From Patescibacteria group bacterium (GTDB lineage: Bacteria; Patescibacteriota; Minisyncoccia; Ryanbacterales; GWA2-47-10b), in assembly GCA_038065475.1 (NCBI GenBank), contig JBBTQY010000003.1:14464-78463 (forward strand): 64,000 nt of DNA, given 5' to 3'. The notes beneath the pieces are model-generated. The model was given only the letters and a program-made list of their open reading frames with translations. It ran no database searches and had not been told where the DNA came from. Position numbers and translations under genes: made by a program. Numbering within the stretch: the first letter of the stretch is position 1; each line of letters begins with the position of its first letter. Shown here in pieces: positions 31,343-59,844 of the stretch.

Positions 31343-31371
31343 TTCCTGTGTCAATAAACCAATAAAATAGT
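31343..31371 (-). promoter_or_regulatory. Putative sigma70-like promoter TTGACA-N17-TTTATT for the radical-SAM gene
   Basis: Consensus -35 with a 17-nt spacer, about 35 nt upstream of the SD and ATG. It lies between an upstream terminator and the gene. Confidence 0.4.
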
Positions 31372-31390
31372 ATTTTGTCAATATTCCTCA

Positions 31391-31424
31391 AAAAGAAAAG
31401 CAGGGGCCCCGTGAGGAGTCCCTG
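31391..31424 (-). terminator. Putative intrinsic terminator after the methyltransferase gene
   Basis: GC-rich hairpin CAGGG-(GGGGCCCC-containing loop)-CCCTG followed by CTTTTCTTTTT on the minus strand. Confidence 0.35.
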
Positions 31425-31448
31425 ATGTTTGATGGCGTGCCTTTTTTT

Positions 31449-43383: not shown

Positions 43384-43833
43384 CTATGCCTTGAGGTACA
43401 GGCGAAGAGCGAAGAAGGGACGATCGGCATCCTTCTTCTTGAAGCCGAGCTTCTCGTAAAGCGTAATCGCCTCAGGATGTCGCGTGGAAACGTCGATGAA
43501 GTCGGCGCCACACTCGCGCGCCTCGCGGATCAAAGCCTCCACGAGCCTTGTGCCGATGCCTTGCCCGCGATACTCGGGATCTACCACCACGTCTTCGATG
43601 ACGAATACGCGCCCGAGAAGTTTTGTGTAAAAGGAAAGAGTTGCCATCCCAATAAGAACCTCGCCATCGTACGCGCCGACCATACGAAATGTAGTACGTG
43701 CCGCCACGAACGCAGCGAAGTGCATGGGGGTAAGCTCTTGGTCAGGGTATAGAAACGCCAGAAGCACCGCGATGCGCTGATAAGCTGCCATCAACCCCCC
43801 GCGACTCCGAATAACTTTTACATCAATATCCAT
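43384..43833 (-). CDS. GNAT-family N-acetyltransferase (candidate amino-sugar N-acetyltransferase, WecD/PseH-like role)
   Basis: VIEDVVVDPEYRGQGIGTRLVE is the acetyl-CoA binding motif A. Start at the ATG with GGAGG 7 nt upstream. GC-rich. Confidence 0.75.
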   Translation of the reverse strand: MDIDVKVIRSRGGLMAAYQRIAVLLAFLYPDQELTPMHFAAFVAARTTFRMVGAYDGEVLIGMATLSFYTKLLGRVFVIEDVVVDPEYRGQGIGTRLVEALIREARECGADFIDVSTRHPEAITLYEKLGFKKKDADRPFFALRLYLKA

Positions 43834-43900
43834 ACGTTGCCTCCAGAAGGCAAAGTACAATCTTTTGGGTAACCAGTCAAGCTGTGCTAGGATTTTCAAT

Positions 43901-44815
43901 ATGCCAAAGGTATCAGTAATCATACCAACCCATAACCGCGCTCACCTCCTTCCTCGCGCACTCGACAGCGTGCTATCGCAAAGCTACAAAGATATGGAGA
44001 TTATTATCGTCGACGATGGGTCGAGTGACGAGACGCCTGCCGTTATCGCTCGCTATACCGACCCACGCATCCGAACCATACGATACGAAACACCACAAGG
44101 AATACCGACGGTACGCAATCGCGGCATGCAAGAGGCTCGCGGCGAATATATCGCATGGCAAGACGATGACGATGAGTGGCTCCCCGGGAAGCTGGAGAAA
44201 CAAGTAGCAAAAATGGAAACGCTCTCTGAAGAATACGGGGTCGTCTATTCAGCGTATTGGCGCATGCGCAAAGATGGAACGCGCGCTTTTTTCCCACCAC
44301 GCTGGGTACAACCCCAAGAAGGTGACCTCTATAAAGTATTTCTGAAAAAAAACTTTTTATGCCTCCAATCAATGCTTATGCGAAAAAAAGTTTTTGAAAC
44401 CGTCGGAGGACTCGATAAACGATTCCCCGTACTTCAAGAATATGATTGGTTCCCAAAAATCGCCGAACGTTTTCAGTTTGCTTATATCCCAGAGCCGCTG
44501 ACGCTTTTGCATCATACGCCAAAATCAAATTCACAAAACAACACTCTTAACGCATTTGCTCGAGAATTATTTATACAAGATAGGTATCCTGACCTTCTAC
44601 GATTCAAATTTCTCGGATACCATTATGGACTCATCGGCGATCTTTATATGGGAGATAAAAAACCATGGCGCGCTGCAACTTTTCTTTGGAAATCAGTACG
44701 GCACGAACCTTTCCGTGCGCGACATTGGGTAAAAGCGCTCTGTGCGTCTTGTGGAATTAATTATTTAAAGCTCAAAATATATCTACCTACAGGCAAAAGG
44801 CGATTTAAAATATGA
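43901..44815 (+). CDS. GT2 (GT-A fold) glycosyltransferase
   Basis: VSVIIPTHNRAHLLPRALDSVLSQSY...IIVDDGSSDET and the DDDDEW (DxD) motif. Confidence 0.8.
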   Translation: MPKVSVIIPTHNRAHLLPRALDSVLSQSYKDMEIIIVDDGSSDETPAVIARYTDPRIRTIRYETPQGIPTVRNRGMQEARGEYIAWQDDDDEWLPGKLEKQVAKMETLSEEYGVVYSAYWRMRKDGTRAFFPPRWVQPQEGDLYKVFLKKNFLCLQSMLMRKKVFETVGGLDKRFPVLQEYDWFPKIAERFQFAYIPEPLTLLHHTPKSNSQNNTLNAFARELFIQDRYPDLLRFKFLGYHYGLIGDLYMGDKKPWRAATFLWKSVRHEPFRARHWVKALCASCGINYLKLKIYLPTGKRRFKI

Positions 44816-45522
44816 AACAAGTTCGATTTGAGTTTAAATATATCCTCCACCCCGCTCAGGTAGTTGAGGCGCGCGATATCATCCACCGATGCATGAACCC
44901 TGATCCATTCGCGCCATCGGGATCCTATACTGTGACGAGTCTTTACTTTGACACGCCCACACTCTCCGATTACTACGAAAAATCGAGTGGGTTTTTAGAT
45001 CGCAAAAAAGTGCGCGCACGAATATATGCGCAAAATCTTGCCCGATCAGATGGAATGATTTGGCTTGAAATAAAACGGAAACATAACGCGATATTTAGAA
45101 AAATACATACGGCAATCACAAAAGCCTCGTGGGATCTTATGATCGAACATCGCTATTCTGAATTACTCAAACTCAATACTAGCGATGAAATTCGTACGTT
45201 TCTCTGGGATCTTATACGCGAAAAACGAACGCCGACATCGTTTATCCGCTACCAGCGCACGCCGTACGTAGGAACTCATGACCCCTCATTTCGCATTACG
45301 CTTGATTCTGACATCGAAACAGCACGTCATGATGACCTGACAGAACCACTCTACACATATCCCGTAAAAAATGTAGGCGCTATCTTGGAAGTTAAATTTT
45401 CTGAAACTCTCCCCCCTTGGTTCGGTCATGTCGTGCGCAATCTTGATTTGACGCGCACCAGTTTCTCCAAGTATGCTAAGTCTATTGAAACGGCATCTTT
45501 GTGGAACCCGCTCCCACGCTAA
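44812..45522 (+). CDS. VTC-domain (CYTH-like, polyphosphate-polymerase-type domain) protein
   Basis: RFEFKYIL...SLYFDTP...RKKVRARIY resembles the bacterial VTC domain N-terminus. It has a 4-nt overlap with the upstream GT2 and is followed by its usual DUF4956 partner. Confidence 0.55.
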   Translation: MKQVRFEFKYILHPAQVVEARDIIHRCMNPDPFAPSGSYTVTSLYFDTPTLSDYYEKSSGFLDRKKVRARIYAQNLARSDGMIWLEIKRKHNAIFRKIHTAITKASWDLMIEHRYSELLKLNTSDEIRTFLWDLIREKRTPTSFIRYQRTPYVGTHDPSFRITLDSDIETARHDDLTEPLYTYPVKNVGAILEVKFSETLPPWFGHVVRNLDLTRTSFSKYAKSIETASLWNPLPR

Positions 45523-45527
45523 ATATT

Positions 45528-46211
45528 ATGGAATCAAACTTTTTAACAAACTTCTATAACCTAACCTCGACGGAACTATCGAGCGCTCTTGTGGTACTCA
45601 ATTTACTTTTGGCATTCGGGCTGGCGACACTGGTCGTGTGGGTGTGGCGCAAAACACATACGGGCCTTTCATACTCGCAATCTTTCGCTATCACCATCGT
45701 CATGATTGCCCCCCTTGCATCAGCGGTCATGATGATCGTTCAAAACAACCTCATCGGAGCATTCGCTCTCCTTGGTGCGTTCTCCCTGATTCGCTTCCGT
45801 ACCATCATGAAAGAGACGCGCGATATTGCGTTTCTCTTCTTTGCTCTCACTATCGGTGTATCCGTAGGTACTGGATACTATGCGCTCGCCTTCATCACTA
45901 CTGCGCTTCTCTCAGGCATCGTTCTCTTACTCTACCGATATCAGTTTGCCTCGTCATCAAAAAATGGCTATCTCGTGACATTCCATGCAGAACGCACATT
46001 TAATACAGCTGCGTTAGATCCCCTTTTTAGCACGGTACTTACATCTTCCGAACTCATTCATGAGAAGATATCAAATGCGGGCATCGAGTATGCGTATACT
46101 ATCATCTTCAAAGAGAAAAAAACGGAAGATCAATTTCTCAAAAAATTAAGTGACGTACAGGGTATTACAGATATCTTCCTTCTCTCTGGGAAAGATACTA
46201 TCGAATACTAA
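45528..46211 (+). CDS. DUF4956-family membrane protein (conserved partner of bacterial VTC-domain proteins)
   Basis: An N-terminal membrane region with 4 TM helices is followed by a soluble domain of about 100 aa. The adjacency to the VTC gene supports the call. Confidence 0.55.
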   Translation: MESNFLTNFYNLTSTELSSALVVLNLLLAFGLATLVVWVWRKTHTGLSYSQSFAITIVMIAPLASAVMMIVQNNLIGAFALLGAFSLIRFRTIMKETRDIAFLFFALTIGVSVGTGYYALAFITTALLSGIVLLLYRYQFASSSKNGYLVTFHAERTFNTAALDPLFSTVLTSSELIHEKISNAGIEYAYTIIFKEKKTEDQFLKKLSDVQGITDIFLLSGKDTIEY

Positions 46212-46813
46212 ACCTTCTGAAGTACAAAAAAATGATGCCGTGGGTTTTCAAGTACACGGTATTCTTTTTTTATCTGAAAACCAGCCGACCTTATACTTCT
46301 CATGATTCGATCTAGTGAGTATCCTCGCATACCAATCTCCCAAGAATGCTCATGATGTAGTGGTTGACGGGGCGAAATAAAACGTAAATTCAATAACTTT
46401 CGAAATCGTGTTATTTTCGGAATAGGCAATTCAAATCGTAAAAATGGAGTTGCGACCGGAAGTGAGATAATAACCAAAGTTTTAGCAACACGATAAAGTT
46501 CGCGAAGAGCTTTCTCTGAATCTTCATACGGCATATGCTCAAGTACCTCACATGCCGTAATACAATCAAAGGAACCATCTGGGAATGGCAACTCTTTGAT
46601 TGAACCTACAACATCTGGATTTCTCGCAGAATCAACGTCGAGAGTTGTTACCGACAAACCATGATGGCGCAGATACAACGCGACAAAACCCGTACCCACA
46701 CCGACCTCGAGAAGTGACGCTGGATGGAGCTTAAAAACCTCATCTATCTGATGCCAATAACTCGCGAAGCGAGCTTTGGAATCATACGCACGCTTAAACT
46801 CGTGACCTTTCAT
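46208..46813 (-). CDS. Class I SAM-dependent methyltransferase
   Basis: LLEVGVGTGFVALYL motif I. Confidence 0.75.
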   Translation of the reverse strand: MKGHEFKRAYDSKARFASYWHQIDEVFKLHPASLLEVGVGTGFVALYLRHHGLSVTTLDVDSARNPDVVGSIKELPFPDGSFDCITACEVLEHMPYEDSEKALRELYRVAKTLVIISLPVATPFLRFELPIPKITRFRKLLNLRFISPRQPLHHEHSWEIGMRGYSLDRIMRSIRSAGFQIKKEYRVLENPRHHFFVLQKV

Positions 46814-48104
46814 ATTTAAACGCTAGAAGTCCTAAAAGAATTAATGGGATCACAATAGGATACCGCAATCTGGCACCAACGCCAAACCCCGTACTCACCA
46901 CCGTTACCGTGATAAAATAACCTACCATGATAATCAAGAAAATTACTTGATGATGATTGACGCCACGTATACCGCGCCAAGCACCCACAACGGCGAGCGC
47001 CGACACAGCAATCCAAAACATACGCCCAAGCCCTATCAATAAAATCTCCCACCATCGAAACTCGCCGAGTGCACCCTTTATTTTCGTTGGCCAATCTTTA
47101 TTGATAAACACAACGGGCGTTAAGTAATTGTGATGTCGCTTTACTTGTTCATCCGCATCTTTTTCCAAGAGGGCTGAATATCCTTCGTTGGTTAACAACG
47201 AGATCGTACTCACGCCGATCGTGGTCGCAAATGCCCTTGGGTACTCAAGTAAAAAGATGCGCGCCGCGCTACCCACGCTCGTGCAACGAGCCTCGAGCTC
47301 CCGGTACTGCGGCAACGCCCATGCCTCCGCCCAATTGCTCGCATCAAGGCGGTATTCTGACGAAAGAACACCTGCAAGGCCCCAACTACAAATGTTGCCG
47401 GAATCATCCGACGTAAGGTCATATGAGCCCCCAACAGCATTGTTACGTAACATCCATGGACTCATAAGTAGCACTGTAACGATAACAAAAATAAATGCAT
47501 GGCGTGGCCTTCGATATACAAACAACAAAAGAAATCCGATGAGCACGACTAAATACACTGGAGCGGGTTTTATATAAAGAGTGGCTACAATAGCTACTAC
47601 CGCAAGCAAAAGTGAACTTGTACTATTTTGATCAAGATACCGAATAAACGCAAAAACAAACAGCGCTAGAAAAAAAACAAAAACCGTCTCTGGTATCAAA
47701 AGAATATGAATGGTCGCCAGAAATGGCTCAAGCGAAAATAGCAGTGCTGCCCCAAGCGCCAAACGACTCGAAGTAAAGCGACTGGCAAGCAAGAAAAGGA
47801 TAAGCGCAGTACCCGCGGCAAGCGCCGCCTGTACTAATGATAACGCTATTGCTCCTACTACCTCGCCACCCGCCCACAAAAATAGCCCGAGCAAAAACGG
47901 ATAGAGCGGCATAAAACGCGTAGATGCAAACCCCTCTCCTCGAAATATTCCCTCGCCCAGGCCACGATAGAGTGATGAATCGCTCCAGAAAAGACGATCG
48001 GCTCCAAAAAGTAAAACAAAAACAAAAACTGCGGCGATCTTGATAATAAAAACCGCCCAGAAGAAATTGCGCGGTTTTGTTATAAAAGATACAAGCCCGT
48101 TCAT
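46794..48104 (-). CDS. ArnT/PMT-like GT-C membrane glycosyltransferase
   Basis: Polytopic, with an N-terminal SDSSLYRGLGEGIFRGEGF...FMPLYPFLLGLF loop of DxxY...PxYP type. Confidence 0.7.
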   Translation of the reverse strand: MNGLVSFITKPRNFFWAVFIIKIAAVFVFVLLFGADRLFWSDSSLYRGLGEGIFRGEGFASTRFMPLYPFLLGLFLWAGGEVVGAIALSLVQAALAAGTALILFLLASRFTSSRLALGAALLFSLEPFLATIHILLIPETVFVFFLALFVFAFIRYLDQNSTSSLLLAVVAIVATLYIKPAPVYLVVLIGFLLLFVYRRPRHAFIFVIVTVLLMSPWMLRNNAVGGSYDLTSDDSGNICSWGLAGVLSSEYRLDASNWAEAWALPQYRELEARCTSVGSAARIFLLEYPRAFATTIGVSTISLLTNEGYSALLEKDADEQVKRHHNYLTPVVFINKDWPTKIKGALGEFRWWEILLIGLGRMFWIAVSALAVVGAWRGIRGVNHHQVIFLIIMVGYFITVTVVSTGFGVGARLRYPIVIPLILLGLLAFKYERSRV

Positions 48105-48107
48105 AGA

Positions 48108-48770
48108 CTACACCTTGGGTGGCGTATTACGCATGCGCACCGACACATAGAGCGAGAGATTGAGTGGCACAAATGACGGTAGAAGAAGTCGCTTCTCGAT
48201 GGTAAATTGCTTACCTAAAAATCCGAGAATATAGTTGTGATCTGATGGATGAATATCTTCGGGATCTTCGCCGACAAGTTTGAAAAAACTATCGGTAATA
48301 ATATTTTTCACCGGGAACGAGATAACAACAAGACCGCCGGGCTTTACGATACGTGCGATCTCGCGAGCAGCGCGCTCAGACTCATGGATATCTTCAAGCG
48401 TGCTTACAATCACACACGCGTCAAACAACGCATCCGCAAACGGCATAGCCATAATATCGCCTGAAATAAGTTCGACGTTGCTAACCTGATACCAATCAAG
48501 CATGCGCTTGACCGCATCAGTCTCTTTGTGAAGATCGAGTGCGGTAACTTTTTTTGCAATTTTGGAAAGTGTGGGCAAGAGAATACCACTTCCGTAGCCA
48601 ATCTCGATAAGATTTTCGAACTGATATGGCTCAAGAAGTTTATAAGTATTCTTAAGACGCTGACGATACACAATGCTCGCCACAGGGTAATAGTGATACA
48701 TTACCGGATCACCCCAATTCGTCTGGGTCATTAAACGCTTTGGTGGAATGATCAATTTTGGTTTTTTCAT
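48108..48770 (-). CDS. Class I SAM-dependent methyltransferase
   Basis: LIEIGYGSGILL motif I and VKPGGLVVISFP. Confidence 0.8.
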   Translation of the reverse strand: MKKPKLIIPPKRLMTQTNWGDPVMYHYYPVASIVYRQRLKNTYKLLEPYQFENLIEIGYGSGILLPTLSKIAKKVTALDLHKETDAVKRMLDWYQVSNVELISGDIMAMPFADALFDACVIVSTLEDIHESERAAREIARIVKPGGLVVISFPVKNIITDSFFKLVGEDPEDIHPSDHNYILGFLGKQFTIEKRLLLPSFVPLNLSLYVSVRMRNTPPKV

Positions 48771-49135
48771 TTAGGTAAAAGAATAAGAATAACACCAAAT
48801 AGAATCGCTGCGATACCTACAACATGTAACGTCGAAAGGGCTTCTTTCAGAAAGATATAGGAAAACGCAGTAATAAGAACAAGCATAACGCCTACTGACA
48901 CCGGATACACGATATTGAGCTGGAGCCGAGAAAGAATAAACACATACAGAAAAAAACTCACCGCATAAAGCACGACCCCGGCAAATAGAAAACCATTTTT
49001 AAATGGCTCAAAAATAATACCGAGAGAGAGCCCCTCGCCCGCGATACGTTTTGCGCCCGTGCGCAGCATGAGCTGCGCCGAGACAGTAAAGATGATATCG
49101 AGCATTAAAAGCGCGTAAATAAGCGGCGAAGCCAT
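48767..49135 (-). CDS. SMR/DMT-type 4-TM small membrane protein, ArnE/ArnF-like (undecaprenyl-phosphate-aminoarabinose flippase subunit family)
   Basis: 122 aa from the internal ATG (MASPLIYALLMLDIIFTVSAQLMLRTG). Four TM helices. Sits in a GT-C/GT2 context. Confidence 0.6.
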   Translation of the reverse strand: MASPLIYALLMLDIIFTVSAQLMLRTGAKRIAGEGLSLGIIFEPFKNGFLFAGVVLYAVSFFLYVFILSRLQLNIVYPVSVGVMLVLITAFSYIFLKEALSTLHVVGIAAILFGVILILLPK

Positions 49136-49264
49136 AGGACAAGGATACCGGAAAAGCACTTTTGCTTCAAGAATAAACACATGCAAAATATTGACAAAAT
49201 AATATATATATGCTATATATTGAACGGGAAATGAGTTCCCCATTGATCCGAAGAGGAGTCAACT

Positions 49265-49987
49265 TTGACAACCAAATTCGAGCTGGCAAGCCCAGTGCGC
49301 GAGATCTTCGCGTATCTCGCCCCCAACTACTTCGATCCGAAGAAGGGTCACTGCAACTGGGGGCACGACGGTCAGCACCTGCTGCGCTGCCTCGCCTCAC
49401 GCAAGGCCTACTGGCCCGCGATCATCAACGACGAGCCCAACTTTGCGGGTGAGGGCAACGATCTCGCCATCGATCTCGGCCTCGCGCTTCACGATCTCGA
49501 CAGATCGAAGGAGCTCCGGGGTCGTACCGACGAGGCCAAAACGCGCCGACGCGACTTCGCTGCCGCTCTCATGCGTCAACACGACATCGACGAGTTCATC
49601 ATCCTGGAGGTCTTCGCCGCTCTCGACACCAAGTTCCTCCAGACCGACGATCCTCAGAAGACCCCGCTTGCCCGCGTCATCGACGACCTCGACAAGGCGG
49701 ACATGGGTGCCGTCGGCCTCTACCGCATGGCGGCAGTGGCCTGCGACCGCAACTACGGCGTGTTCGCCCGCGCACGCGACTTCGACCCGGATGCGCCGGC
49801 GATCGAGGGGGACGACAACCTCGACTCGTACGCCGCCGACATCTGCTTCTGCCTCGAGTGGCGGAACAAGCCCAAGTTCGCGATCGCGACGCCGGCCATC
49901 CGTCGCGCGGTCGAGCACCGTTTCGATTTCATGGAGGCCTCCCTCGCACAGCTCAAGCGCGAGCACGAGGAGCTCGGCCTCATCTAG
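49265..49987 (+). CDS. Hypothetical protein (240 aa), strongly GC-rich and of apparently foreign origin
   Basis: Long ORF with GC-rich third codon positions (GAC/GAG/CTC/GCC). It is followed 19 nt downstream by a strong intrinsic terminator. I recognise no domain. Confidence 0.5.
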   Translation: MTTKFELASPVREIFAYLAPNYFDPKKGHCNWGHDGQHLLRCLASRKAYWPAIINDEPNFAGEGNDLAIDLGLALHDLDRSKELRGRTDEAKTRRRDFAAALMRQHDIDEFIILEVFAALDTKFLQTDDPQKTPLARVIDDLDKADMGAVGLYRMAAVACDRNYGVFARARDFDPDAPAIEGDDNLDSYAADICFCLEWRNKPKFAIATPAIRRAVEHRFDFMEASLAQLKREHEELGLI

Positions 49988-50005
49988 GCGACCAACCGCA
50001 ACGGC

Positions 50006-50046
50006 GGGTAGGACTTCATCAGAAGTCCTACCCGCTTTTCTTTTTA
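50006..50046 (+). terminator. Strong rho-independent terminator (11-bp stem GGGTAGGACTT/AAGTCCTACCC, then GCTTTTCTTTTT)
   Basis: Read directly from the sequence. Confidence 0.7.
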
Positions 50047-50054
50047 TATAAAGA

Positions 50055-50096
50055 TAAATAAAAAATGCCGCGTTCGTACCGTTGTACGAACGCGGC
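50055..50096 (-). terminator. Strong rho-independent terminator for the convergent minus-strand gene (13-bp stem GCCGCGTTCGTAC/GTACGAACGCGGC, then ATTTTTTATTT)
   Basis: Read directly. Together with the previous feature it forms a bidirectional terminator pair. Confidence 0.7.
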
Positions 50097-50118
50097 TTGA
50101 CCTACGAGGATTGCCCCG

Positions 50119-50724
50119 CTAGTTGCTACTCGCTGGAGCCGGAGAACCTGTGTCACCTCCTTCGGCGTACGCTCGCCGAAGATTCCTAATCGTCCTCCAC
50201 TGGAGATGCATCGAGGAAGGCCCCCCGAAGCCCGGAATCAGCCAGTACTTAACGCACTCGAGCTTCTGTGTCCCTGGGTCGTAGACGTGAAGAGAAGGGG
50301 TGGTATCGTCACCCTTCAGCTTACTATGCCTCCAGGTGTGCAGATAGGCATGCCCACGCTCGCAGTAGGTGAAGAGCGGCGTGTCGTAGGAGATGAAATC
50401 GCTCTGGGGAGTGGGCAGCGGGATCAGTGGAATGTCGAAACCATCATGGCCGAGAACCTTCACCCTGAGCTCGTAGACCGGCGACATGCGACTGCCGCAG
50501 ATGAGACAACGGCGCAAGGGACATACGCCCCGATGCTTCGTCCGCCAGAACCACTTCACCTCGAAATTCCGCATGAGTCGTCCCCAGAAGTGCTCCTTGA
50601 GAAACAACTGCTTGAAGCAGAGCTCAGCCATCATCAGGAAACCTGCATACACCCCCTTTTCGAATTCGCTTGCCACACCTGAAGACGAAAGGTGGATACT
50701 CCACTTGTTATCGATTTTTGCCAT
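50119..50724 (-). CDS. Hypothetical Cys/His-rich protein (201 aa), GC-rich
   Basis: True start is the internal ATG (MAKIDNKWSIH) with a GAGAGG SD. It contains CPLRRCLICGS and a cluster of H/C residues (TYCERGHAYLHTWRH). The upstream part of the track ORF is an alternate-frame overlap of the cupin gene. Confidence 0.5.
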   Translation of the reverse strand: MAKIDNKWSIHLSSSGVASEFEKGVYAGFLMMAELCFKQLFLKEHFWGRLMRNFEVKWFWRTKHRGVCPLRRCLICGSRMSPVYELRVKVLGHDGFDIPLIPLPTPQSDFISYDTPLFTYCERGHAYLHTWRHSKLKGDDTTPSLHVYDPGTQKLECVKYWLIPGFGGPSSMHLQWRTIRNLRRAYAEGGDTGSPAPASSN

Positions 50725-50734
50725 ACATCCTCTC

Positions 50735-51106
50735 TTAGTCGACCGCAATCCCCCAATAGAAGATCTTGAAGGGGGCGACGATGACGACCTGGTTGTGAAG
50801 CGCGCCCGGCGGAATGGCGATGAAATCACCCGGCCCGACGCGCACGATCTTGTCGTCCACGTAGTAGTCCGCCTCGCCTTCGAGCACCACGTAGCACTCC
50901 CACATCGTGGAGTGCCTGTGCATCTCGGCTCCGACTGGTCCCTCGGGCAACGTTGCGATCGCGATCTGTGTGACGCCGGGCAAGACATCGCCTCGGCAGA
51001 TCACCTCTTTGATGGTATGCGTACCGTGACTCGTATGCTCCACCGTGCGCTCACTGGCGCGAACGACATAAGCCTTCATTTCCTCTACCCTCACTTTCTG
51101 TATCAA
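50735..51106 (-). CDS. Cupin-domain protein (cupin_2-type metal-binding barrel)
   Basis: HRHSTMWECYVVLEGEADYY...GDFIAIPPGALH is the two-motif cupin signature. GC-rich. Confidence 0.7.
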   Translation of the reverse strand: MIQKVRVEEMKAYVVRASERTVEHTSHGTHTIKEVICRGDVLPGVTQIAIATLPEGPVGAEMHRHSTMWECYVVLEGEADYYVDDKIVRVGPGDFIAIPPGALHNQVVIVAPFKIFYWGIAVD

Positions 51107-51183
51107 GTCCTGCTAATGCATAGCAAGAACAGTTTGCAGGAACACCTGCATTTTTATATCACAAAATATAATATTTGTCTATA

Positions 51184-51639
51184 CTAGCGGATCCCCGCCT
51201 TGCGTAGGAGTTTACGTACATCTTTTTGCGTATGCGACGGGATTTTGGAGAACCACCCAACATCAGTTGATTGCGAGTCAAGAACAGTCTCTTGTCTTGC
51301 GGTTATTAAACGTGCCTCATATACAATACTGATGGTTTGAGACTTGATCCCCCAGCGTGTTTCTGGCGCGTTGAGCGTACCTAAAATGCCACCTAGCTTT
51401 ACATGCAAACCAACTTCTTCGCGCGCCTTGCGTACTGCAGCTCGTTCGGGACTTTCTCCTAAAAATACTCGCCCACCTGGAGTCCACCAAAAACCCTTGT
51501 AAGGCTCATTGGCTCGCTTGTGCAACAGAACCTTTCCCCGATGTACAATCACAACATCAACCGTCAGTATCGGAACAGTGCCGATTATTTTTTTATAAAG
51601 CGCCAATGGTACGTGCTGGCTATTTTTTGATTGCGCCAT
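51184..51639 (-). CDS. Nudix hydrolase (GDP-mannose mannosyl hydrolase/Gmm-like nucleotide-sugar hydrolase)
   Basis: Nudix box GGRVFLGESPERAAVRKAREEVGL. Lies in an operon with gmd. Start at the internal ATG (MAQSKNSQ). Confidence 0.75.
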   Translation of the reverse strand: MAQSKNSQHVPLALYKKIIGTVPILTVDVVIVHRGKVLLHKRANEPYKGFWWTPGGRVFLGESPERAAVRKAREEVGLHVKLGGILGTLNAPETRWGIKSQTISIVYEARLITARQETVLDSQSTDVGWFSKIPSHTQKDVRKLLRKAGIR

Positions 51640-51640
51640 A

Positions 51641-52324
51641 TTATTTTTTCTCCCCTGCCATAAAAATAAACATGCCAAAATATTTAAGTGGCGTACGCTC
51701 GCAGATGCGACTTAACCAGTCAAGATGCGGGATGAGAAAAATAATAGCCTTTCTTTTTTCAGTAATATGAAAATTTGCTTCGCAAAAAAAACGCTCGAGT
51801 TTTCTTTGAGTTACAAAGCGTCGCACCTTGTCATCGAAATAGGTGGCATCTCCTATCCCCAGTCTGCGCAACAACGCACGCAAACGATCATAGATGCGCA
51901 TCGTATCGTTTGCTGATGAAAGCAAAAGTCGTCCACGGGGACGTAATACACGATAAGCTTCACGCATAAAAACCTCGGGATGATCAAGATAATAAACCAT
52001 CTCAGCTCCCACCACTGTATCAAATGATGCGTCAGGGAACGGTAAGTGCTCTGCATCGGCAACCACAGCATCAATGGTGAGTTTTTTCTTTATTTCATCG
52101 ACCATATTAGGCGATATATCTGTCGCGACTACACGACATCCGTGTTCTAAAAATGCCCGTGACATCTCACCCGTACCCGCACCTACTTCGAGGACATCTC
52201 CCTTGGCATATCTGAGAAAAAAATCGCGGCGACGACTAACAGCATACGCGCTTGTCACCGCATCATAACGAGATGCGGCGCTATCAAAAATATGGGCAAA
52301 TTCCTTGTTAGCAGGCTTAGTCAC
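51641..52324 (-). CDS. Class I SAM-dependent methyltransferase
   Basis: VLEVGAGTGEMSRAFL motif I and LRPRGRLLLSS. Confidence 0.8.
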   Translation of the reverse strand: MTKPANKEFAHIFDSAASRYDAVTSAYAVSRRRDFFLRYAKGDVLEVGAGTGEMSRAFLEHGCRVVATDISPNMVDEIKKKLTIDAVVADAEHLPFPDASFDTVVGAEMVYYLDHPEVFMREAYRVLRPRGRLLLSSANDTMRIYDRLRALLRRLGIGDATYFDDKVRRFVTQRKLERFFCEANFHITEKRKAIIFLIPHLDWLSRICERTPLKYFGMFIFMAGEKK

Positions 52325-52988
52325 GATACCGACGCAAAATCATGCGCAAGATTTTGAGTCCATGCCAAAACGCATTGACTTTGGTTTTGCCCGCAAAACG
52401 TGCACGCTCAAACGCTGGGACCTCGGCAAACTTGAGTCCTGCGCGATGCGCTTTTACCACGATTTCTGTACAAAATTCAAAACCCGTCGACGTAAGATGT
52501 AGCTTCTTGAGACCGTCACGTGTAATCGCGGTAAAAAGATAAAGAGAATCCGTGACATTGGTACCATGGATCACGTTGGTCAACCAAGTGAACATGCGAT
52601 TTCCAAACCAGCGGATAATCGTGTCATCTTCACTCTTACCACCTACCGTGTAGCGCGATGCCATCACATACTCATATCCTCGGCGTACCTTCTCAATAAT
52701 CGAAGCAATTTCATGAGGATTGTGCGAGCCATCAGCATCCATCATGATCACCACATCACCTGTGACAATGTCAAATGCCTCAAGAAAGGCGCCACCGTAA
52801 CCCTTACCCTTTTGCATCACTAACTTGTCCTCGGGGCGCAATTCGGCTTTTGCTTCTTCCCACGTCTTATCAGTCGAATGCCCGTCGATGATGACGATTT
52901 CATTGACAATATCGCGGGGCACTTCGCTGATAACTTTACCAATACACCCCTCTTCGTTACGCGTCGGTATAATAAGACTAACCTTCAT
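52317..52988 (-). CDS. GT2 polyprenyl-phosphate sugar synthase (ArnC/GtrB/Dpm1-like)
   Basis: MKVSLIIPTRNEEGCIGKVISEVP...IIDGHSTDKT...MMDADGSH motifs. Confidence 0.85.
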   Translation of the reverse strand: MKVSLIIPTRNEEGCIGKVISEVPRDIVNEIVIIDGHSTDKTWEEAKAELRPEDKLVMQKGKGYGGAFLEAFDIVTGDVVIMMDADGSHNPHEIASIIEKVRRGYEYVMASRYTVGGKSEDDTIIRWFGNRMFTWLTNVIHGTNVTDSLYLFTAITRDGLKKLHLTSTGFEFCTEIVVKAHRAGLKFAEVPAFERARFAGKTKVNAFWHGLKILRMILRRYRD

Positions 52989-53022
52989 AATTTTAGTTCC
53001 TAGACCTAGTCTAATATTGACT

Positions 53023-54117
53023 TTATTTATAAAACATTTTTATTGTATCCGCAACTCTCACAATATCCGCACTAGAGAGCTGCGAAGCAGACGGCAACCA
53101 TAAACCGCGCGCGGCAACTCGCTCTGCTACGGGAAATGATTCTGTACTCCATGCATCGCAATAAATTTTCTGCGTATGAATAGCGGGATATACTCGGCGC
53201 GAACCAATACCGTGAGACTTGAGATGTGCTGCGAGTCCGTCAGGATCGTCTACAAAGACCTCAATAAACCAAGGACTTGTATCATTTGTGTTAGTCGCTA
53301 TCATCGCAACTTGAGAGACATCTTTTAAAAGCTCGCAATATTTCTTCCAAATCTCTTTTTTGCGCCCAACACGCGCGGAAAGTTTTTTCATCTGCTCGAT
53401 ACCAATCACTGCCTGGATATCGGTAAATTTAAAATTCCACCCCCACTCATCATGCAAATCACTGCCACCACCCGTGCGGCCAAAATCTTTGAGTCGGCGC
53501 AACTTGCCTGCGAGCTCATCAGAATCGGTTACCAGCGCCCCCCCCTGCCCCGTGCTAATAATTTTAGGAACACTAAAAGAAAAACTTCCAATCTGGCCAA
53601 ACGTACCAAGGTGCTTACCCGCTTGTCGCGATCCCAGAGCTTGCGCCGCATCTTCAAGTAAAAATAAATTATGCTTGCGGCAAAAATCAACAATCTGCCG
53701 CATATCACCCGCACGACCATTAAACGCCACGTACATCATCGCGCGCGTTTTTGATGTTATTGCTCTTTCTGCTGCATCCAAATCCATACAAAGTGTCTTT
53801 GGATCGATATCAACAAGCACCGGTTCGATGCCGACAAGTTTTGCGGCGTTGGGACTAGCAATCATTGTAAAATCGGGCACCAGGACTTCATTGCCCGCCT
53901 CAAGCCCGAGCGCCAGAAGCGCGAGCGTGAGGCTGATAGTACCATTGGTGGTCATCACACAATATTTAGCGCCCGTAAACTCCGCGATCATACGTTCAAG
54001 CTCTTTGGTGCGCCCAAACTCCATCGCCCACCCGCCTGATTTCATATATTCAAAAACGGCCGTGGCTTCTTCATCGCCAAACCACGGCTCCATTTGAGGA
54101 ATATTTTTTTCGGTCAT
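53023..54117 (-). CDS. DegT/DnrJ/EryC1/StrS-family PLP-dependent nucleotide-sugar aminotransferase (candidate GDP-perosamine synthase type, given the adjacent gmd)
   Basis: EPWFGDEEATAVFEYMKSGGWAM...FTGAKYCVMTTNGTISL is the family N-terminus. The Per-like role is an inference from context. Confidence 0.8.
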   Translation of the reverse strand: MTEKNIPQMEPWFGDEEATAVFEYMKSGGWAMEFGRTKELERMIAEFTGAKYCVMTTNGTISLTLALLALGLEAGNEVLVPDFTMIASPNAAKLVGIEPVLVDIDPKTLCMDLDAAERAITSKTRAMMYVAFNGRAGDMRQIVDFCRKHNLFLLEDAAQALGSRQAGKHLGTFGQIGSFSFSVPKIISTGQGGALVTDSDELAGKLRRLKDFGRTGGGSDLHDEWGWNFKFTDIQAVIGIEQMKKLSARVGRKKEIWKKYCELLKDVSQVAMIATNTNDTSPWFIEVFVDDPDGLAAHLKSHGIGSRRVYPAIHTQKIYCDAWSTESFPVAERVAARGLWLPSASQLSSADIVRVADTIKMFYK

Positions 54118-54119
54118 AT

Positions 54120-54524
54120 TTAAATCAACACCTTATCTTCTACAAAAGGTCCATTTTTCACCTCAATAAACTCTGCATCACGCGTGATGTGGATGCCATA
54201 ACCACCATTGAGTAGGATCAACACGTCGCCTTCCTTGATAGAAGTTGTTTTAAATTTCTTATAGGCACGGCCTTCTTTTACATACAAATCAATGCGTGCC
54301 GAGCCCTTGCGCACAATAAGACATTCTTGCAACGCCTTGGTTATGCGCTTTTTGGGTGCATGCGCATGTGCCTTAAGATACGTTCCCTTAGGGTGTTTGA
54401 GTGTCACCATTTGCAGTGGCTCACTACCAGGCGTTACCGGCTTTGAGCCTTTCTCGATCTTGGTAATCTTTACTGCAACAAGAGTTTTTTTGTGACGAAA
54501 TTCCTCCATGAGTCTAGTATACAC
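54120..54524 (-). CDS. Small cupin-fold protein (WbuC / sugar ketoisomerase-like), 134 aa
   Basis: LKAHAHAPKKRITKALQECLIVRKGSARIDLY...LLNGGYGIHI has a His-rich cupin motif pattern. It is tightly coupled between gmd and the aminotransferase. Confidence 0.45.
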   Translation of the reverse strand: MYTRLMEEFRHKKTLVAVKITKIEKGSKPVTPGSEPLQMVTLKHPKGTYLKAHAHAPKKRITKALQECLIVRKGSARIDLYVKEGRAYKKFKTTSIKEGDVLILLNGGYGIHITRDAEFIEVKNGPFVEDKVLI

Positions 54525-55597
54525 TACACGAGTGGTAGACGTTTTACATCAAATTTTTTACCGAGATGAGCTTCTTGCTCGACAATCTTCAGGTCGCTCT
54601 CAGCCATGATCTTCGCGAGTTCTTTAAATGTCACCTTGGGCTGCCAGTCGAGTACCGTGCGAGCCTTAGTCGGATCACCCAAAAGCAAATCAACCTCTGC
54701 GGGGCGAAAGTGCACCGGATCAATCTCGATAACTGTCTTACCAGTCTTGCGATCAACACCGCGCTCTTCGACTCCTTCTCCTTCCCAGACAATATCCATG
54801 TCATAGTGCTTACCGACTTCTTCAGCAAACTCGCGCACGGTATGTGTCTCGCCCGTTGCCAATACAAAATCATCGGGTTTATCGTGCTGTAAAATTTTCC
54901 AAATACCTTCTACATAATCTTTGGAGTAGCCCCAATCACGTTTTGCGTTTAAATTACCAAGATGAAGTACTGGCTGCAAACCAAGCTTCACGCGCGCGAG
55001 TCCCGTAGTAATTTTACGCGTGACAAAATTGATACCACGACGAGGCGACTCATGGTTGAATAAAATACCATTTGACGCAAAAAGACCGTAGCTCTCACGA
55101 TAAATGCGAGTAGAGTAAAAGGCGAATACTTTTGAAAGGCCGTAGGGCGACTGCGGATTGAAAGGTGTTGTCTCTTTTTGTGGAGTTTCTAATACCTTAC
55201 CAAACATTTCCGATGAACTTGCCTGATAGTATTTGGTAGGAAGTTTGAGATCACGAATTGCCTCCAGAATACGTAGCGGGCCCACGCCCGTTACGTTTGC
55301 CGTGTATTCGGGCACATCAAAACTAATACGCACATGCGACTGCGCGCCAAGATTATAAATCTCATCGGGCTGAATCTTTGAGATAATACGAGCAATATTT
55401 GAAGAATCACCCAAGTCCGCATACGCGGTGATGAAATGCGGATACTTGGGATTATCGTACAAATGATCAATGCGATAGGTATTTGGCGTACTAGCGCGCC
55501 GCTGGAGCCCGTAGACCTGATAGCCCTTCTCAAGCAAAAATTCGGCCAAATAGGAGCCGTCCTGACCGGTAACACCTGTAATGAGGGCTTTTTTCAT
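54524..55597 (-). CDS. gmd: GDP-mannose 4,6-dehydratase
   Basis: [36 protein letters not shown] is the canonical Gmd N-terminus. Length is 357 aa. Confidence 0.9.
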
Positions 55598-55618
55598 AAC
55601 TTGATTACTATACCATTA

Positions 55619-56668
55619 TTAATGATTTTGTGAAGGGTTCTCGACCACCTTTTGAATCTGAGAGACAGCCTCCTCCAAAGAATAACGATCGAGCACAATC
55701 TTTCGGCCATGATCTCCTAAACGAGCGCGCAACTCAGTATCACCTACTAGTCGTTCAAGTGCACTCACCCATTCAGTATCAGTCAACGCAAGAAAACCAC
55801 TTTTCCCATCATCAACGACATACTTCGCCTCACCAATACGCGAAGCGACGACGGGAAGTGCTGAAGCCATGTACTCAATAGCTTTAAGAGCGCACTTCGC
55901 ACGATTAAAATCAGAATCGACAAGCGGCATGACGCCGATATCAAAATGATACTTACCTATCAATGTGCTTGGTGTTTGCGCGTCTTTCCAATCAGCTTCA
56001 TCTATATAGACAACTTCATACCGAACATCCTTAAAGCAATCTTTGAGAGGTTGATAATTCTCTGAGCCAGCGATGACAAGGCGAAACGCTGCATTTCTTT
56101 CCGCGAGTTTATCGAGGGCGGGTTTGAGCACTGTAAAGTTTCCTTGCCGAAAATGTGCCTTCCCCTGCCCTATCCAACCAACCGTGATTGGAGGGGCAAC
56201 GCTCTTTGGCTTCTGGTACATACGTACATCAATACTTGTTGGTACCAATACAACCTGCTGCGCCTTCATACTTCGAGCATAATCAAAAATCTCATGTGAA
56301 CCCGCAAAAACTATATCAGCCATACGCATCAGTGCATGCGTCTTACGTGGCGAATGGATCCACTCAGCGTCATCGAGGTCATAGATAATTTGTTTGCCGT
56401 ATAATATTTTTGCAAGCCACAGCATAAAAGCGACGTCCCACGGAAAAAGAGACTTATGAACAAAAAGAATCTTAATATCTCGAGCACACATACGGCGCCA
56501 TAAGCTCCGTACCATATGTACTCGCGCACGCGAAATATCAGTAAATGCATACGCGATACTATGAATTACCTCGGCGTCGGGAGCTATGCTATCTCGCACC
56601 TGCCATACCCGGAGTCGCGAAGAGGCAGTATCGCGATCTCCTTTCGTTAAGAAAAGGATGGAGTTCAT
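55619..56668 (-). CDS. Glycosyltransferase family 4 (GT-B, group 1)
   Basis: C-terminal FRLVIAGSENYQ...DIGVMPLVDSDFNRAKCALKAIEYMASALPVVAS...VDDGKSGFL shows GT4 topology. Confidence 0.75.
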   Translation of the reverse strand: MNSILFLTKGDRDTASSRLRVWQVRDSIAPDAEVIHSIAYAFTDISRARVHMVRSLWRRMCARDIKILFVHKSLFPWDVAFMLWLAKILYGKQIIYDLDDAEWIHSPRKTHALMRMADIVFAGSHEIFDYARSMKAQQVVLVPTSIDVRMYQKPKSVAPPITVGWIGQGKAHFRQGNFTVLKPALDKLAERNAAFRLVIAGSENYQPLKDCFKDVRYEVVYIDEADWKDAQTPSTLIGKYHFDIGVMPLVDSDFNRAKCALKAIEYMASALPVVASRIGEAKYVVDDGKSGFLALTDTEWVSALERLVGDTELRARLGDHGRKIVLDRYSLEEAVSQIQKVVENPSQNH

Positions 56669-57744
56669 GCGCGCATTACTTTCTCTAAGAGCTCAGAAAT
56701 CTTTTGAGCTCGCGCCTCCCATGTATACTGCAGGGCGGAGGCACGCGCAGCTTTCCCTAATCGAGAGGCTAGCTCCTCATCTTCTACAATACGCAAGACC
56801 GCCTTGGCAAAAAGTTTTCCATCAAGCTTTTGTATAAGAATTCCATTTACTTCATTCTCTATCACTTCATCATTTGCTCCACCAAGCGTAGAGATGATTG
56901 GTTTACCGGCGGCGAGATATTCATATAGTTTAGAAGACACGCTGCCGGGATACACCGTTGAGAGCGGATTCACAAGAATATCGGCAGCACAGAGATACAC
57001 GGGCACCTCTGCAGGCACAATACGCTTAACAATAGTATATCGTCCCTCAAGACCCTCTTTTTTCATTTGTCTGTGTATCGCCTCCTCTTCATTCGCCGTA
57101 GGACCAACAAACACCAAATGAACATTCACACCCCTTAACTCCTGCATCATACTTACCAATACGTCGACTGAATACCACAAAAAACTTCCTGCATACATAA
57201 TGGTCGTCATGCCAGAAGGCACGCCAATACGCAAAAGATCGACGGAAGTATTATATTGCTCGACCGTGATTGCGTTGGTCGGCGCCACTATGTATGGCTG
57301 TCGCACATGATAATACTGCGCAAGCTTCTTTGTTATAAACACAACTCCATTACTTGAACGCACCGCAAAATGCCATAGCGGTAACAAAAATCGCCATTCA
57401 TGACTGCCATGTACCTCGAAAACTATTCTCTTACCTTTTATGAAACGAGCGAAAAGCGCTGGAAATATGAGCCATGGATCTCGAAAATATAAAACATCAT
57501 AATCTGCAGCACGCATAAGGTATAAAAAAGCAGATCGTCGTTTCGGACTTACGTCGAATACCAACGGAGTAGTGATCCCCTTATCAGATAAGATAGATTC
57601 GCGCGTTCGCGGCTCAGCAGCCAACGAGATGACGAGCACTCGCGTGCCTTCTACGCGCGATAAATATTCTGCTGTCTTAAGAATATTGACACTATGCGCT
57701 CGTGAAAGTGATAGTTTCGCCCGAGTAAGAATACGTATGTTCAT
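56665..57744 (-). CDS. Glycosyltransferase family 4 (GT-B, group 1)
   Basis: HLVFVGPTANEE...ADILVNPLSTVYPGSVSSKLYEYLAAGKPIIST...ENEVNGILI is the EX7E region. Confidence 0.8.
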   Translation of the reverse strand: MNIRILTRAKLSLSRAHSVNILKTAEYLSRVEGTRVLVISLAAEPRTRESILSDKGITTPLVFDVSPKRRSAFLYLMRAADYDVLYFRDPWLIFPALFARFIKGKRIVFEVHGSHEWRFLLPLWHFAVRSSNGVVFITKKLAQYYHVRQPYIVAPTNAITVEQYNTSVDLLRIGVPSGMTTIMYAGSFLWYSVDVLVSMMQELRGVNVHLVFVGPTANEEEAIHRQMKKEGLEGRYTIVKRIVPAEVPVYLCAADILVNPLSTVYPGSVSSKLYEYLAAGKPIISTLGGANDEVIENEVNGILIQKLDGKLFAKAVLRIVEDEELASRLGKAARASALQYTWEARAQKISELLEKVMRA

Positions 57745-57749
57745 TAAAT

Positions 57750-59075
57750 TTACAACGCGAGAGCATCCTGCAAGCGGCGCACAATGGCGCCACCGTGAAA
57801 TAATATATCAAGCATAGTAGCGATACCAAGAAGGGCGAGGGCAATTACAACAACTCGCCTGCTTTTTACGTCTTTCTTGTGTGCAATCAAAAAAGCAGCA
57901 GTAATCGCAAGTAAAGGATATAACACAAATCGATAACGGCTCTCAACAATAATGGGTATAACGCTCATCGGCTGCAACACAACTACAGCGCCCAAAAATA
58001 ATATTTTCACCTCACGAAATATGCGAGGTATAAGCATTAGCAAACCCGCTATACCACCTATAAATAGAAGTGCTGTCAAAATACCTGAGGCGACCAAAGT
58101 TAAAAGTCGGTGGATCGGATCGTCAGCAAGATGAATCCAAAAGCCGGTGGGTCGGATCAAGCTGAAATATAGCGCCGCCTTCTTGATTTGTAATACTATA
58201 AATTCTCCGGGTGACTCGAAAAGAAATTTTTTATATTCTCCTCGGGATATACGATCAAGCTCATTCATAGTAACCGTGTTGCGTACATGCTGAATCTCAG
58301 GTGTTTTCTCAAAACCGCCTGCAGCACCTTTATGATTTCCCACCCATAAATCATAACTACCGACGCTCGTGGTCAAAATAAAACGCCCATAGCGCTCAGA
58401 GACGGTATATGACCATGGACCAATAATGCAGATTGTGGCAAGCGCGAGCACAGCAAGGGCTCGCCAATCTCTCCTCCAGCCCAAAAGCAGCAAAACAAAG
58501 CCAAATGCAAGAAGTGCAGTTGGTCGAATCAATATAGCAAAAGGCCATAGCACTGCTGCGAGAATAAGCAGCATGCCTTGCCTGCGATCAAAAAAAGTAA
58601 AGGTTACTAGTAACGCAGCAAGGAAAACAAAAATAAAAAGTGTCTCAGTCAACAATAAACCGCTCACCACAATAAGGTCAGGAGTAAATGCAAACAAAAC
58701 ACTCGCAATCGTAGCTGCCCGCGGCATATCTGGAAACAAACGGCGAACAATGAACCACATGAGTATCACCGATGCACCTCGCAAGAGCGCTTGCAGCACC
58801 CAAACCGTCCATATCTTATGTCCAAAAATCCAATAGACAGCTGCGAGAAAAAATTGATACCCGGGCCCTACCCTAATAAGAGCCCAATCAAGCTCCGGCG
58901 TTAGCACATTACTTGCTTCTTCTATATATCCAAAACCCTGCGCAAGATTCCATCCGATCTTATCGTACGCTGCCGCATCAACACGCGGACGATCATGCCA
59001 ATAAAACGCATACGCCAGAGAGATAAGCGTGGTCGCGGCCGCAAGAACAAGAATATGCCGCGGTATATTTTTCAT
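57750..59075 (-). CDS. ArnT/PMT-like GT-C membrane glycosyltransferase
   Basis: [19 protein letters not shown]...[16 protein letters not shown] is a DxxY...PxY loop. Polytopic. 4-nt overlap with the downstream GT2. Confidence 0.7.
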
Positions 59076-59767: not shown

Positions 59768-59844
59768 GCAACCAAAGAGACTTATATCTTATAACGCTCT
59801 TTATCAGCCTATCGTTTCCTCACTTCTTTCTAGCATAAAAACGC

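Follow-up and report, generated by a model that had tools for sequence, protein, structure and literature searches.

We analysed a 64,000-nucleotide stretch of DNA from the metagenome-assembled genome of a Patescibacteria group bacterium (Saccharibacteria-like; contig JBBTQY010000003.1; the whole stretch is called the window below), in which a surface-glycan locus holds a 1.9-kb GC-rich block made up of an open reading frame on the plus strand, ORF-A, and of ORF-B and a cupin gene on the minus strand. The reading that we find likely, though well short of certain, is that this block carries a divergent HD phosphohydrolase cassette that is exchanged in a glycan locus of Patescibacteria, together with a near-unique ORF-B and terminators of an ordinary kind; none of the rival explanations is favoured over it. 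The genes lie as the original prediction had described them, with the Cys/His strings cited for ORF-B present and the cupin gene next to it, and the spacer that had been put at 130 bp measured 131 bp:

49265-49987, plus strand: ORF-A, 240 amino acids (aa), TTG start; NCBI hypothetical protein AAB367_01010 (the exact sequence is present in NCBI)
49988-50118: spacer between ORF-A and ORF-B, 131 bp
50119-50724, minus strand: ORF-B, 201 aa, ATG start; NCBI hypothetical protein AAB367_01015
50735-51079 (ATG start, 114 aa) or to 51106 (longer, TTG start), minus strand: cupin gene, Cupin_2 in Pfam

ORF-A had been taken for an orphan, but it belongs to a family. A single-sequence search recovered 5 relatives and a profile search of 5.8 billion sequences recovered 14 homologous clusters, none of them with a Pfam domain; the family is rare, with 15 members recovered. 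Residues G33, H34, H38, R41, H76, D77, D141, D143, K144, D146 and R154 were invariant in an alignment of 14 sequences. Compared with the PDB, the family profile matched Lin1889 (3B57, E 2.1e-9), 3DJB (E 7.4e-8), BH2835 (3DTO, E 1e-7), SE1688 (2QGS, E 1.9e-7) and Bacillus subtilis YpgQ (5DQV, E 5.2e-5), with the GHDxxH, HD and DxDKxD-GAxGIxR motifs in register and D141, D143 and D146 opposite the DaDrlD of 3B57 and 3DJB. The AlphaFold2 model of ORF-A (pLDDT 82, pTM 0.80) was all-alpha with ten helices; the top 8 matches that Foldseek found for it in the PDB were all HD hydrolases (probability 1.00, TM 0.47-0.68), and the fold matches included YpgQ, BH2835 and LpR71. A tblastn search gave a weak match to a protein annotated as HD domain-containing and encoded on a plasmid of Halorussus. 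ORF-A was resolved only through the family profile and the predicted structure: sensitive homology and structure searches led to HD hydrolases for ORF-A and to nothing credible for ORF-B, so that the earlier statement that neither protein could be assigned to a family holds for ORF-B and is superseded for ORF-A.

YpgQ is a mononuclear Mn2+ (d)NTP pyrophosphohydrolase whose metal ligands are H29, H58, D59 and D124, and dinuclear HD oxygenases and diphosphatases of the PhnZ, MIOX and YqeK type have an extended H...HD...H...H...D motif with two extra histidines (PMC8177086). PenF, a related HD member, is a nucleoside 5'-monophosphatase (PMC11592144). The dinuclear motif was not found in the ORF-A family, in which no invariant histidine lies between D77 and D141, and a mononuclear site is therefore expected. 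ORF-A shares with YpgQ (PDB 5DQV/5IHY), 3B57, 3DTO, 2QGS, 3DJB, LpR71 (2PJQ) and Escherichia coli YedJ the all-alpha HD fold (TM 0.55-0.67), the GH-D-x-x-H, HD and D-x-D-K-x-D-x-G-A-x-G-I-x-R motifs and a size of ~190-240 aa. It differs from this group in that identity is just 16-19%, in a strongly conserved C-terminal half characteristic of its family (DFD..APAIEGDENLDS..C.EWW; residues 156-186 were modelled with low confidence), and in the constant embedding of the family in glycan loci. From the motifs and the modelled fold, ORF-A is best described as an outlying new subfamily of YpgQ/YedJ-like HD phosphohydrolases, with predicted metal-dependence. It would most likely hydrolyse a nucleotide or nucleotide-derived phosphoester tied to nucleotide-sugar supply or GDP-sugar metabolism, alongside the Nudix enzyme encoded nearby.

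Evidence for exchange of the gene came from two related loci, L015 and L005 (loci fetched for comparison are designated by L numbers, and the ORF-A homologue of each is called A). These are 86.4% identical in nucleotide sequence over 4.4 kb, and their SMR-type small membrane protein, methyltransferase and PMT_2 protein are respectively 93%, 98% and 84% identical in amino acids. Similarity collapses ~17 nt past the SMR start codon (L015 5850-5870, L005 7865-7885), and to the right of this breakpoint, in the A promoter and the A gene, lies a different allele: identity between the two A genes is only 56%, their 4-fold sites have diverged to the level expected at saturation, and their GC content at third codon positions (GC3) is 0.68 versus 0.51. 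Because the flanks are near-identical, A is divergent and the breakpoint is sharp, we conclude that A and its promoter were replaced by recombination at a fixed position. As judged from these alignments, A is exchanged between genomes as a cassette that runs from promoter to terminator.

The block stands out in composition. GC content is 0.64 in ORF-A, 0.56 in ORF-B and 0.59 in the cupin gene, against 0.47 in the rest of the window, and GC3 is 0.85, 0.69 and 0.77, against 0.465 +/- 0.08 in the 54 other window genes (z-scores of 4.7, 2.8 and 3.8). The flanks of the block have a GC3 of ~0.44, and the Nudix gene, with its host-like GC3, marks the right edge. The original prediction had noted that both ORFs are far richer in GC than the flanking ArnE-like and Nudix genes, and the GC3 values of these two bear this out:

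48767-49135, minus strand: left flank, SMR/ArnE-like small membrane protein (Pfam Multi_Drug_Res/EamA, weak); GC3 0.40
51184-51678, minus strand: right flank, Nudix hydrolase (NUDIX E 1.6e-15); GC3 0.42

The three codon positions of ORF-A follow a coding pattern (GC1/2/3 of 0.66/0.40/0.85). At its 2-fold sites, C/(C+T) is 0.87 versus 0.23 in host genes and G/(G+A) is 0.88 versus 0.52; at 4-fold sites, G+C is 0.80 versus 0.45. The synonymous classes of ORF-B and the cupin gene are GC-shifted in the same direction. Translational selection was ruled out as the cause of the high GC3, since 2-fold pyrimidine, 2-fold purine and 4-fold sites shift jointly, which indicates a different mutational background. 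In 8 of 13 loci the GC3 of A lies 0.19-0.41 above that of the neighbouring genes, and in none is it clearly below; the excess tracks the phylogeny of A, not the host: in the clade formed by the A genes of the window, L004, L014, L011, L015 and L001, GC3 is 0.61-0.85 in hosts with a GC3 of 0.24-0.53. On L016, a Saccharibacteria contig of 55% GC, the GC3 of A matches that of its neighbours, from which it follows that GC-rich carriers of the family exist; A composition likewise matches the host in L003, L018 and L020. The composition of the block would then result from horizontal replacement of the slot by alleles from GC-richer donors, swapped in by recombination with a breakpoint beside the SMR start codon, and at least one GC-rich Saccharibacteria metagenome-assembled genome carries the family natively.

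A contrary account, which we consider quite improbable, is that A and the cupin gene owe their high GC to gene-specific selection or biased gene conversion that maintained it in place while they were inherited vertically along with AT-rich neighbours. It draws on the recurrence of raised A GC3, seen in 8 of 13 independent loci, on the GC-enrichment of the cupin gene in L005 and L008 too, and on the similar divergence of the SMR and A proteins of the window, L004, L014 and L015 (57-66% versus 57-70% aa identity, with synonymous sites near-saturated). The abrupt L015/L005 breakpoint, however, marks a replacement; all codon classes shift equally, as a mutational background predicts; A matches its host in GC-rich L016 and in L003, L018 and L020; and other sugar genes of the window are GC-rich patches as well. 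Against a background GC3 of ~0.44, these further patches comprise a B12-binding radical-SAM protein gene with two NAD-epimerase genes (29327-34312, GC3 0.59-0.64), a second Nudix gene (36512-37090, GC3 0.60), RmlC- and RmlB-like genes (37685-39210, GC3 0.70-0.73) and a GNAT acetyltransferase gene (43384-43923, GC3 0.61). These patches suggest several independent acquisitions and show the locus to be a mosaic.

O-antigen and capsule-type polysaccharide loci are mosaics in which sugar genes of atypical GC are horizontally exchanged between conserved flanks. The window resembles them in that foreign composition is confined to some genes, an allele is replaced at a fixed position and several patches are present. 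It differs in that its patches are GC-rich in an AT-moderate host, whereas those of enterobacterial O-antigen loci are typically AT-rich, and in that the swapped unit is one phosphohydrolase gene, not a glycosyltransferase or polymerase gene, in a Patescibacterium with a reduced genome. As in genomic islands, the composition is atypical. In syntenic relatives the picture is mixed: B is absent from L005 and L008, A and the cupin gene are kept in both, and the A allele is replaced between L015 and L005.

Rather than an insertion found in this genome alone, ORF-A and the cupin gene are conserved residents of the slot between SMR and Nudix. The surface-glycan locus, a cluster of the Saccharibacteria type, comprises, to the left of ORF-A, a methyltransferase gene, a PMT_2/ArnT-like transferase gene, a second methyltransferase gene and the SMR/ArnE-like gene, and on the right Nudix, methyltransferase, GT2 and DegT aminotransferase genes, a 134-aa ORF, the GDP-mannose 4,6-dehydratase gene (GMD), two GT1 genes and PMT_2. 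In L005 and L008, contigs from related Patescibacteria or Saccharibacteria of groundwater, the shared order is a leftward SMR gene, a rightward A and then, all leftward, cupin, Nudix, methyltransferase, GT2 and DegT genes, followed past DegT by an unknown gene, GMD, two GT1 genes and PMT_2. ORF-B is missing from both of these otherwise syntenic contigs. Their A and cupin proteins are 39-60% identical in amino acids to the window copies, a range like that of the neighbouring Nudix, SMR and PMT_2 proteins (32-60%); Nudix orthologues are present in both, the window cupin shares 60% and 49% identity with the cupins encoded in this slot in L005 and L008, and the window SMR is 56-66% identical over 122 aa to the A-flanking SMR proteins (122-131 aa) of L004, L005, L008 and L014. 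The presence of A and the cupin gene at the same position without B makes A a resident of the locus and implies that the cupin works without B. What had been proposed as an inserted cassette is thus confirmed in part, in that A moves as a unit at the L015/L005 breakpoint, and revised in that A and the cupin gene occupy this slot, with convergent terminators between them, in other genomes, from which only ORF-B is absent.

The cupin itself is a small single-domain Cupin_2 protein (PF07883, E 1.5e-13, 50.7 bits versus a cut-off of 27.2), and its best sequence matches in the PDB were quercetinase-type and Cupin_2 proteins, over ~55 residues only. It resembles the WbuC family of Cupin_2 proteins in being a 114-aa Cupin_2 protein encoded in a sugar locus, and the WbuC model was its top NCBIfam match, but it scores far below the cut-off (E 0.0018, 18 bits versus 42) and is not a member by score.

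Homologues of ORF-A keep similar company elsewhere: A adjoins GMD, DegT and GT2 genes in L016, epimerase and DegT genes in L011, ABC transporter, GT2 and NeuB genes in L003, methyltransferase or GT2 genes in L018 and L020, and MurB in L001. Among GTDB representatives the family occurs in 3 of 185,579 species, all 'Candidatus Saccharibacteria', and outside metagenome contigs it was found only in a few Saccharibacteria or Patescibacteria metagenome-assembled genomes. The closest comparison for the locus as a whole is the Arn pathway, which adds 4-amino-arabinose to lipid A and with which it shares a DegT/ArnB-type aminotransferase, a GT2 (ArnC-like), an SMR (ArnE/F-like) protein and a PMT_2/ArnT-like transferase. 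This likeness is at the level of domains only: the window sugar starts from GDP-mannose, as GMD is present, whereas Arn starts from UDP-glucuronate, and the window locus adds methyltransferases, a Nudix hydrolase, a cupin and an HD protein. Lipid A is not expected in this organism.

ORF-B presents the opposite case to ORF-A. Among 1.84e9 cluster representatives it has one homologue, P0016 (phmmer E 6e-10, 36% over 118 aa), with which it shares FW.RLM, R.CLIC...MSP.YEL and D.PLF..C..GH; C73, C76, C121 and H125 are identical in both members of the family (n=2) and are putative ligands through which ORF-B probably binds zinc. Zinc-ribbon and treble-clef proteins have two conserved pairs of Cys/His ligands (CxxC plus CxxxH or CxxC), which the fold brings together. 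The AlphaFold2 model built from the two sequences is poor overall (pLDDT 56) and better locally around the Cys/His residues (76-85). ORF-B matched nothing in Pfam, NCBIfam, PHROGs or PADLOC, nor did P0016 in PADLOC (E <= 1); the two-sequence profile had no match in the PDB, and Foldseek comparison of the model with the PDB and BFVD gave no credible match. Searching plasmids and phages for ORF-B by tblastn returned nothing, a degenerate-peptide scan and the back-translated pattern CLICxxxMSP[VL]YEL found no relatives in JGI metagenome contigs, and when all fetched loci were searched by tblastn with ORF-B and P0016, no remnants came to light in L005, L008 or L014.

Such isolation raises the question of whether ORF-B is a gene at all, rather than a chance ORF of GC-rich DNA or a decayed remnant. 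The many long overlapping ORFs on both strands of the block, the near-lack of homologues among 15 billion proteins and the poor model would all suit that explanation, but we hold it to be very doubtful: P0016 comes from another genome of different composition, the CxxC...CxxGH and FW..LM motifs are conserved, the expected GC3 > GC1 > GC2 order is right in the listed frame only, a good ribosome-binding site (GAGAGGA) lies 3 nt upstream of an ATG placed 10 nt past the cupin stop, the operon terminator follows B rather than the cupin gene, and the opposite-strand ORFs have no Pfam matches. We conclude from the homologue, codon-position GC, ribosome-binding site and terminator that ORF-B is a real gene, and on sequence grounds its product is a real protein that is fast-evolving or very rare.

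P0016 is encoded on the 2.4-kb contig L013, where an SDR gene, the ORF-B homologue and a PaaX-like gene are followed by a terminator and the ~10 last codons of a convergent A-like gene (ending in REHEELGLI and a stop codon); this stretch and the 3' end of the L004 A gene share 88.6% DNA identity. Thus an A-type gene has its 3' end within ~1 kb of each of the two ORF-B family genes. In L014, whose A is just as close, PaaX and SDR genes are present but B is not. As a best guess, ORF-B would be a zinc-binding accessory or partner protein of an A module; it would be the last gene of the cupin operon and, given the foreign composition that it shares, probably arrived with the GC-rich block.

This linkage bears on two further explanations. 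In the first, put forward by the original prediction, ORF-A and ORF-B are a two-gene orphan cassette inserted into a minus-strand operon, with ORF-B and the cupin acting as a metal-dependent sugar-modifying or regulatory pair. The foreign composition with its sharp edges, the position of ORF-B behind the cupin gene (10-nt gap, ribosome-binding site), which suggests co-transcription, the conserved Cys/His residues and the proximity of both ORF-B family genes to an A-type gene all speak for it. We nevertheless find it unlikely, as L005 and L008 have A and the cupin gene in this slot and lack B, the gene for P0016 adjoins SDR and PaaX-like genes and not a cupin gene, ORF-A can be assigned to the HD superfamily, and the block is accompanied by neither flanking repeats nor an integrase or tRNA gene. 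Direct or inverted repeats at the block did not exceed chance level in a repeat search, a Pfam-level scan revealed no integrase- or transposase-type mobility domains within or adjoining it, and the tRNA scan found no tRNA genes in the whole 64-kb window, nor did any Rfam family exceed its gathering threshold there. A transposon- or integron-like insertion of the block was rejected, as flanking repeats beyond chance were lacking. In the second explanation, to which we give little credence, ORF-A and ORF-B form an undescribed two-component module in which a YpgQ-like hydrolase is paired with a zinc-binding partner (two members in ~15 billion proteins), moving among Saccharibacteria glycan loci as a promoter-to-terminator cassette that lacks a recognisable mobility gene, and with a role in conflict or regulation instead of housekeeping; such a module would, for example, deplete nucleotides or nucleotide sugars as a defence, or switch surface-glycan synthesis.

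The signals around the two ORFs suggest that these convergent genes are transcribed separately:

49191-49219, plus strand: promoter-like element of ORF-A, with TTGACA at 49191-49196, a 17-nt spacer ending in TGc at 49211-49213, and TATATA at 49214-49219
49253-49258, plus strand: Shine-Dalgarno sequence GAGGAG of ORF-A, 6 nt before the TTG start
50003-50046 (hairpin 50003-50036), plus strand: intrinsic terminator of ORF-A, with a 15-bp stem, a 4-nt loop and a T tract
50057-50096 (hairpin 50096-50067), minus strand: terminator of the minus-strand operon after ORF-B, with a 13-bp stem, a 4-nt loop and a T tract

Of 6 loci aligned upstream of A, 5 share the TTGAC..TGnTA pattern, and the TG and TA positions do not vary. 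The ORF-A hairpin starts 16 nt past the stop codon and its fragment folds at -32.7 kcal/mol (z = -7.95); the minus-strand hairpin starts 22 nt past the ORF-B stop codon and folds at -33.8 kcal/mol (z = -7.05); none of 200 shuffles was as stable as either. Each is a GC-rich hairpin with a U tract placed just past a stop codon, as in Rho-independent terminators, and L005 and L008 likewise have plus- and minus-strand terminators between A and the cupin gene. Two strong terminators, one on each strand, had been predicted correctly, and so had the 13-bp stem, but the other stem measures 15 bp instead of 11, and the hairpins do not frame the gene pair, as both lie between the two genes. Compared with other convergent pairs of Rho-independent terminators, they share the GC-rich stems of 13-15 bp, the T tracts and the placement of one per strand; only the stem length is unusual, and neither stem is related in sequence to the other or to its counterparts in the relatives. 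We therefore read the hairpins, from their sequence, as presumptive Rho-independent terminators of the ordinary kind between convergent genes. ORF-A, the sole plus-strand gene across 46208-60951 (~14.7 kb; the original prediction of a minus-strand run of about 14 kb was accurate), would be transcribed alone from a sigma70-like promoter as far as the 15-bp hairpin; transcription of the long sugar operon on the minus strand, through Nudix, cupin and ORF-B, would end at the 13-bp hairpin; and the pair would prevent convergent read-through, as in the relatives.

A gene that carries a promoter and a terminator of its own, is often replaced horizontally, has an atypical composition and varies in what lies downstream of it might also be a mobile defence or conflict module that happens to sit in a variable glycan locus. 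ORF-A, possibly with ORF-B, would then be an HD enzyme that degrades (d)NTPs and so depletes the nucleotide pool when phages infect; dNTPs are hydrolysed by YpgQ, its nearest relative of characterised activity (PMC8177086). Yet ORF-A had no match in PHROGs and none in PADLOC at E <= 1, no relatives were found in phage and plasmid collections beyond one weak HD match, and A is tied to GDP-sugar and glycan genes across very divergent hosts, at a fixed position beside SMR. We regard a defence role as very improbable, and slightly more so even than the dismissal of ORF-B as a gene.

Several results weigh against the reading of ORF-A as an exchanged HD phosphohydrolase accompanied by ORF-B. As a single sequence ORF-A matched no Pfam or NCBIfam model even at E <= 1, and its Foldseek E-values were only 0.014-0.15; the family is therefore an outlier among HD proteins, and its chemistry could differ from that of YpgQ. 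The right-hand breakpoint is not visible, as L015 ends inside A, and searches found neither a near-identical copy of the block elsewhere nor a donor genome. The similar degree of divergence of the SMR and A proteins in the window, L004, L014 and L015 would, taken alone, also fit genes that were inherited together over a long time and in which high GC persisted for no evident reason. For ORF-B, the model is of low confidence, and linkage to A was seen in two loci only, of which L013 shows just ~10 codons of an A-like 3' end.

Some gene boundaries in and beside the block can be refined from the sequence. The cupin gene probably starts at the ATG at 51079 (114 aa), as in relatives, rather than at the TTG at 51106. 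The SMR gene probably starts at the ATG at 49135 (122 aa), which makes the listed 158-aa ORF from the ATG at 49243 over-extended; this version (48767-49243, minus strand) would overlap the promoter-like element of ORF-A, and the proteins of relatives measure 122-131 aa. We rejected as spurious a 289-aa version of ORF-B extended to an upstream ATG, which overlaps the cupin gene in another frame and whose extension has the wrong codon-position GC, and the opposite-strand ORFs 50206-50682 and 50486-51187, with wrong codon-position GC and no Pfam matches. To judge by codon-position GC, the many overlapping ORFs of the block are by-products of its high GC. In the 100-bp gap between the Nudix and cupin genes, at the right edge of the block, lies a perfect 6-bp palindromic hairpin (51135-51150, TGCAGGAACACCTGCA), which may be a weak bidirectional terminator or an operator.

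Other features were observed in the window and in related loci. The 134-aa ORF between GMD and DegT (54120-54524, minus strand) has counterparts of 126-129 aa in the corresponding position of L005 and L008, and L016 carries it too; it had no Pfam or PDB sequence match and is, by position, a candidate sugar keto-isomerase-like protein. Beside the glycan locus a gene for a VTC-domain protein is followed by a DUF4956 gene, in the window (44812-46211) as in L005 (3477-4905), L008 (4223-5619) and L011 (2319-3773); in L011 the pair adjoins a gene for a CotH/beta-helix protein. Just downstream of the A homologue in L001 is a 305-aa gene without a Pfam match (9131-10048; L002 5570-6487), with a GC3 of 0.50 versus ~0.23 in its neighbours, which may have been co-transferred with A. 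In L014 a 45-nt direct repeat (1330-1374 and 2040-2084, 89% identical) flanks the PaaX-like gene downstream of the A homologue; each copy holds a 21-nt palindrome (CAAGCAAT..TGCCATGGCA..ATTGCTTG), and the repeat could be an operator or a recombination site.

These findings leave current understanding intact, and both the GC anomaly and the terminators can be explained in ordinary terms. Most notable are the base-pair-sharp swap of an A allele between close relatives and a two-member ORF-B family linked to A. ORF-B, as a genuine near-singleton family, offers a small but concrete case in which to study the origin or persistence of lineage-restricted genes. The breakpoint beside SMR documents, at base-pair scale, the swap of a single gene with its own promoter, and shows the glycan locus as a recombination mosaic even in reduced genomes. 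For the ORF-A family, annotated as hypothetical everywhere and invisible to Pfam and NCBIfam, the HD-domain phosphohydrolase assignment is a first functional handle, and one that ties the family to GDP-sugar-based surface-glycan loci of Saccharibacteria and Patescibacteria, whose envelope chemistry is poorly known and relevant to their episymbiotic lifestyle.

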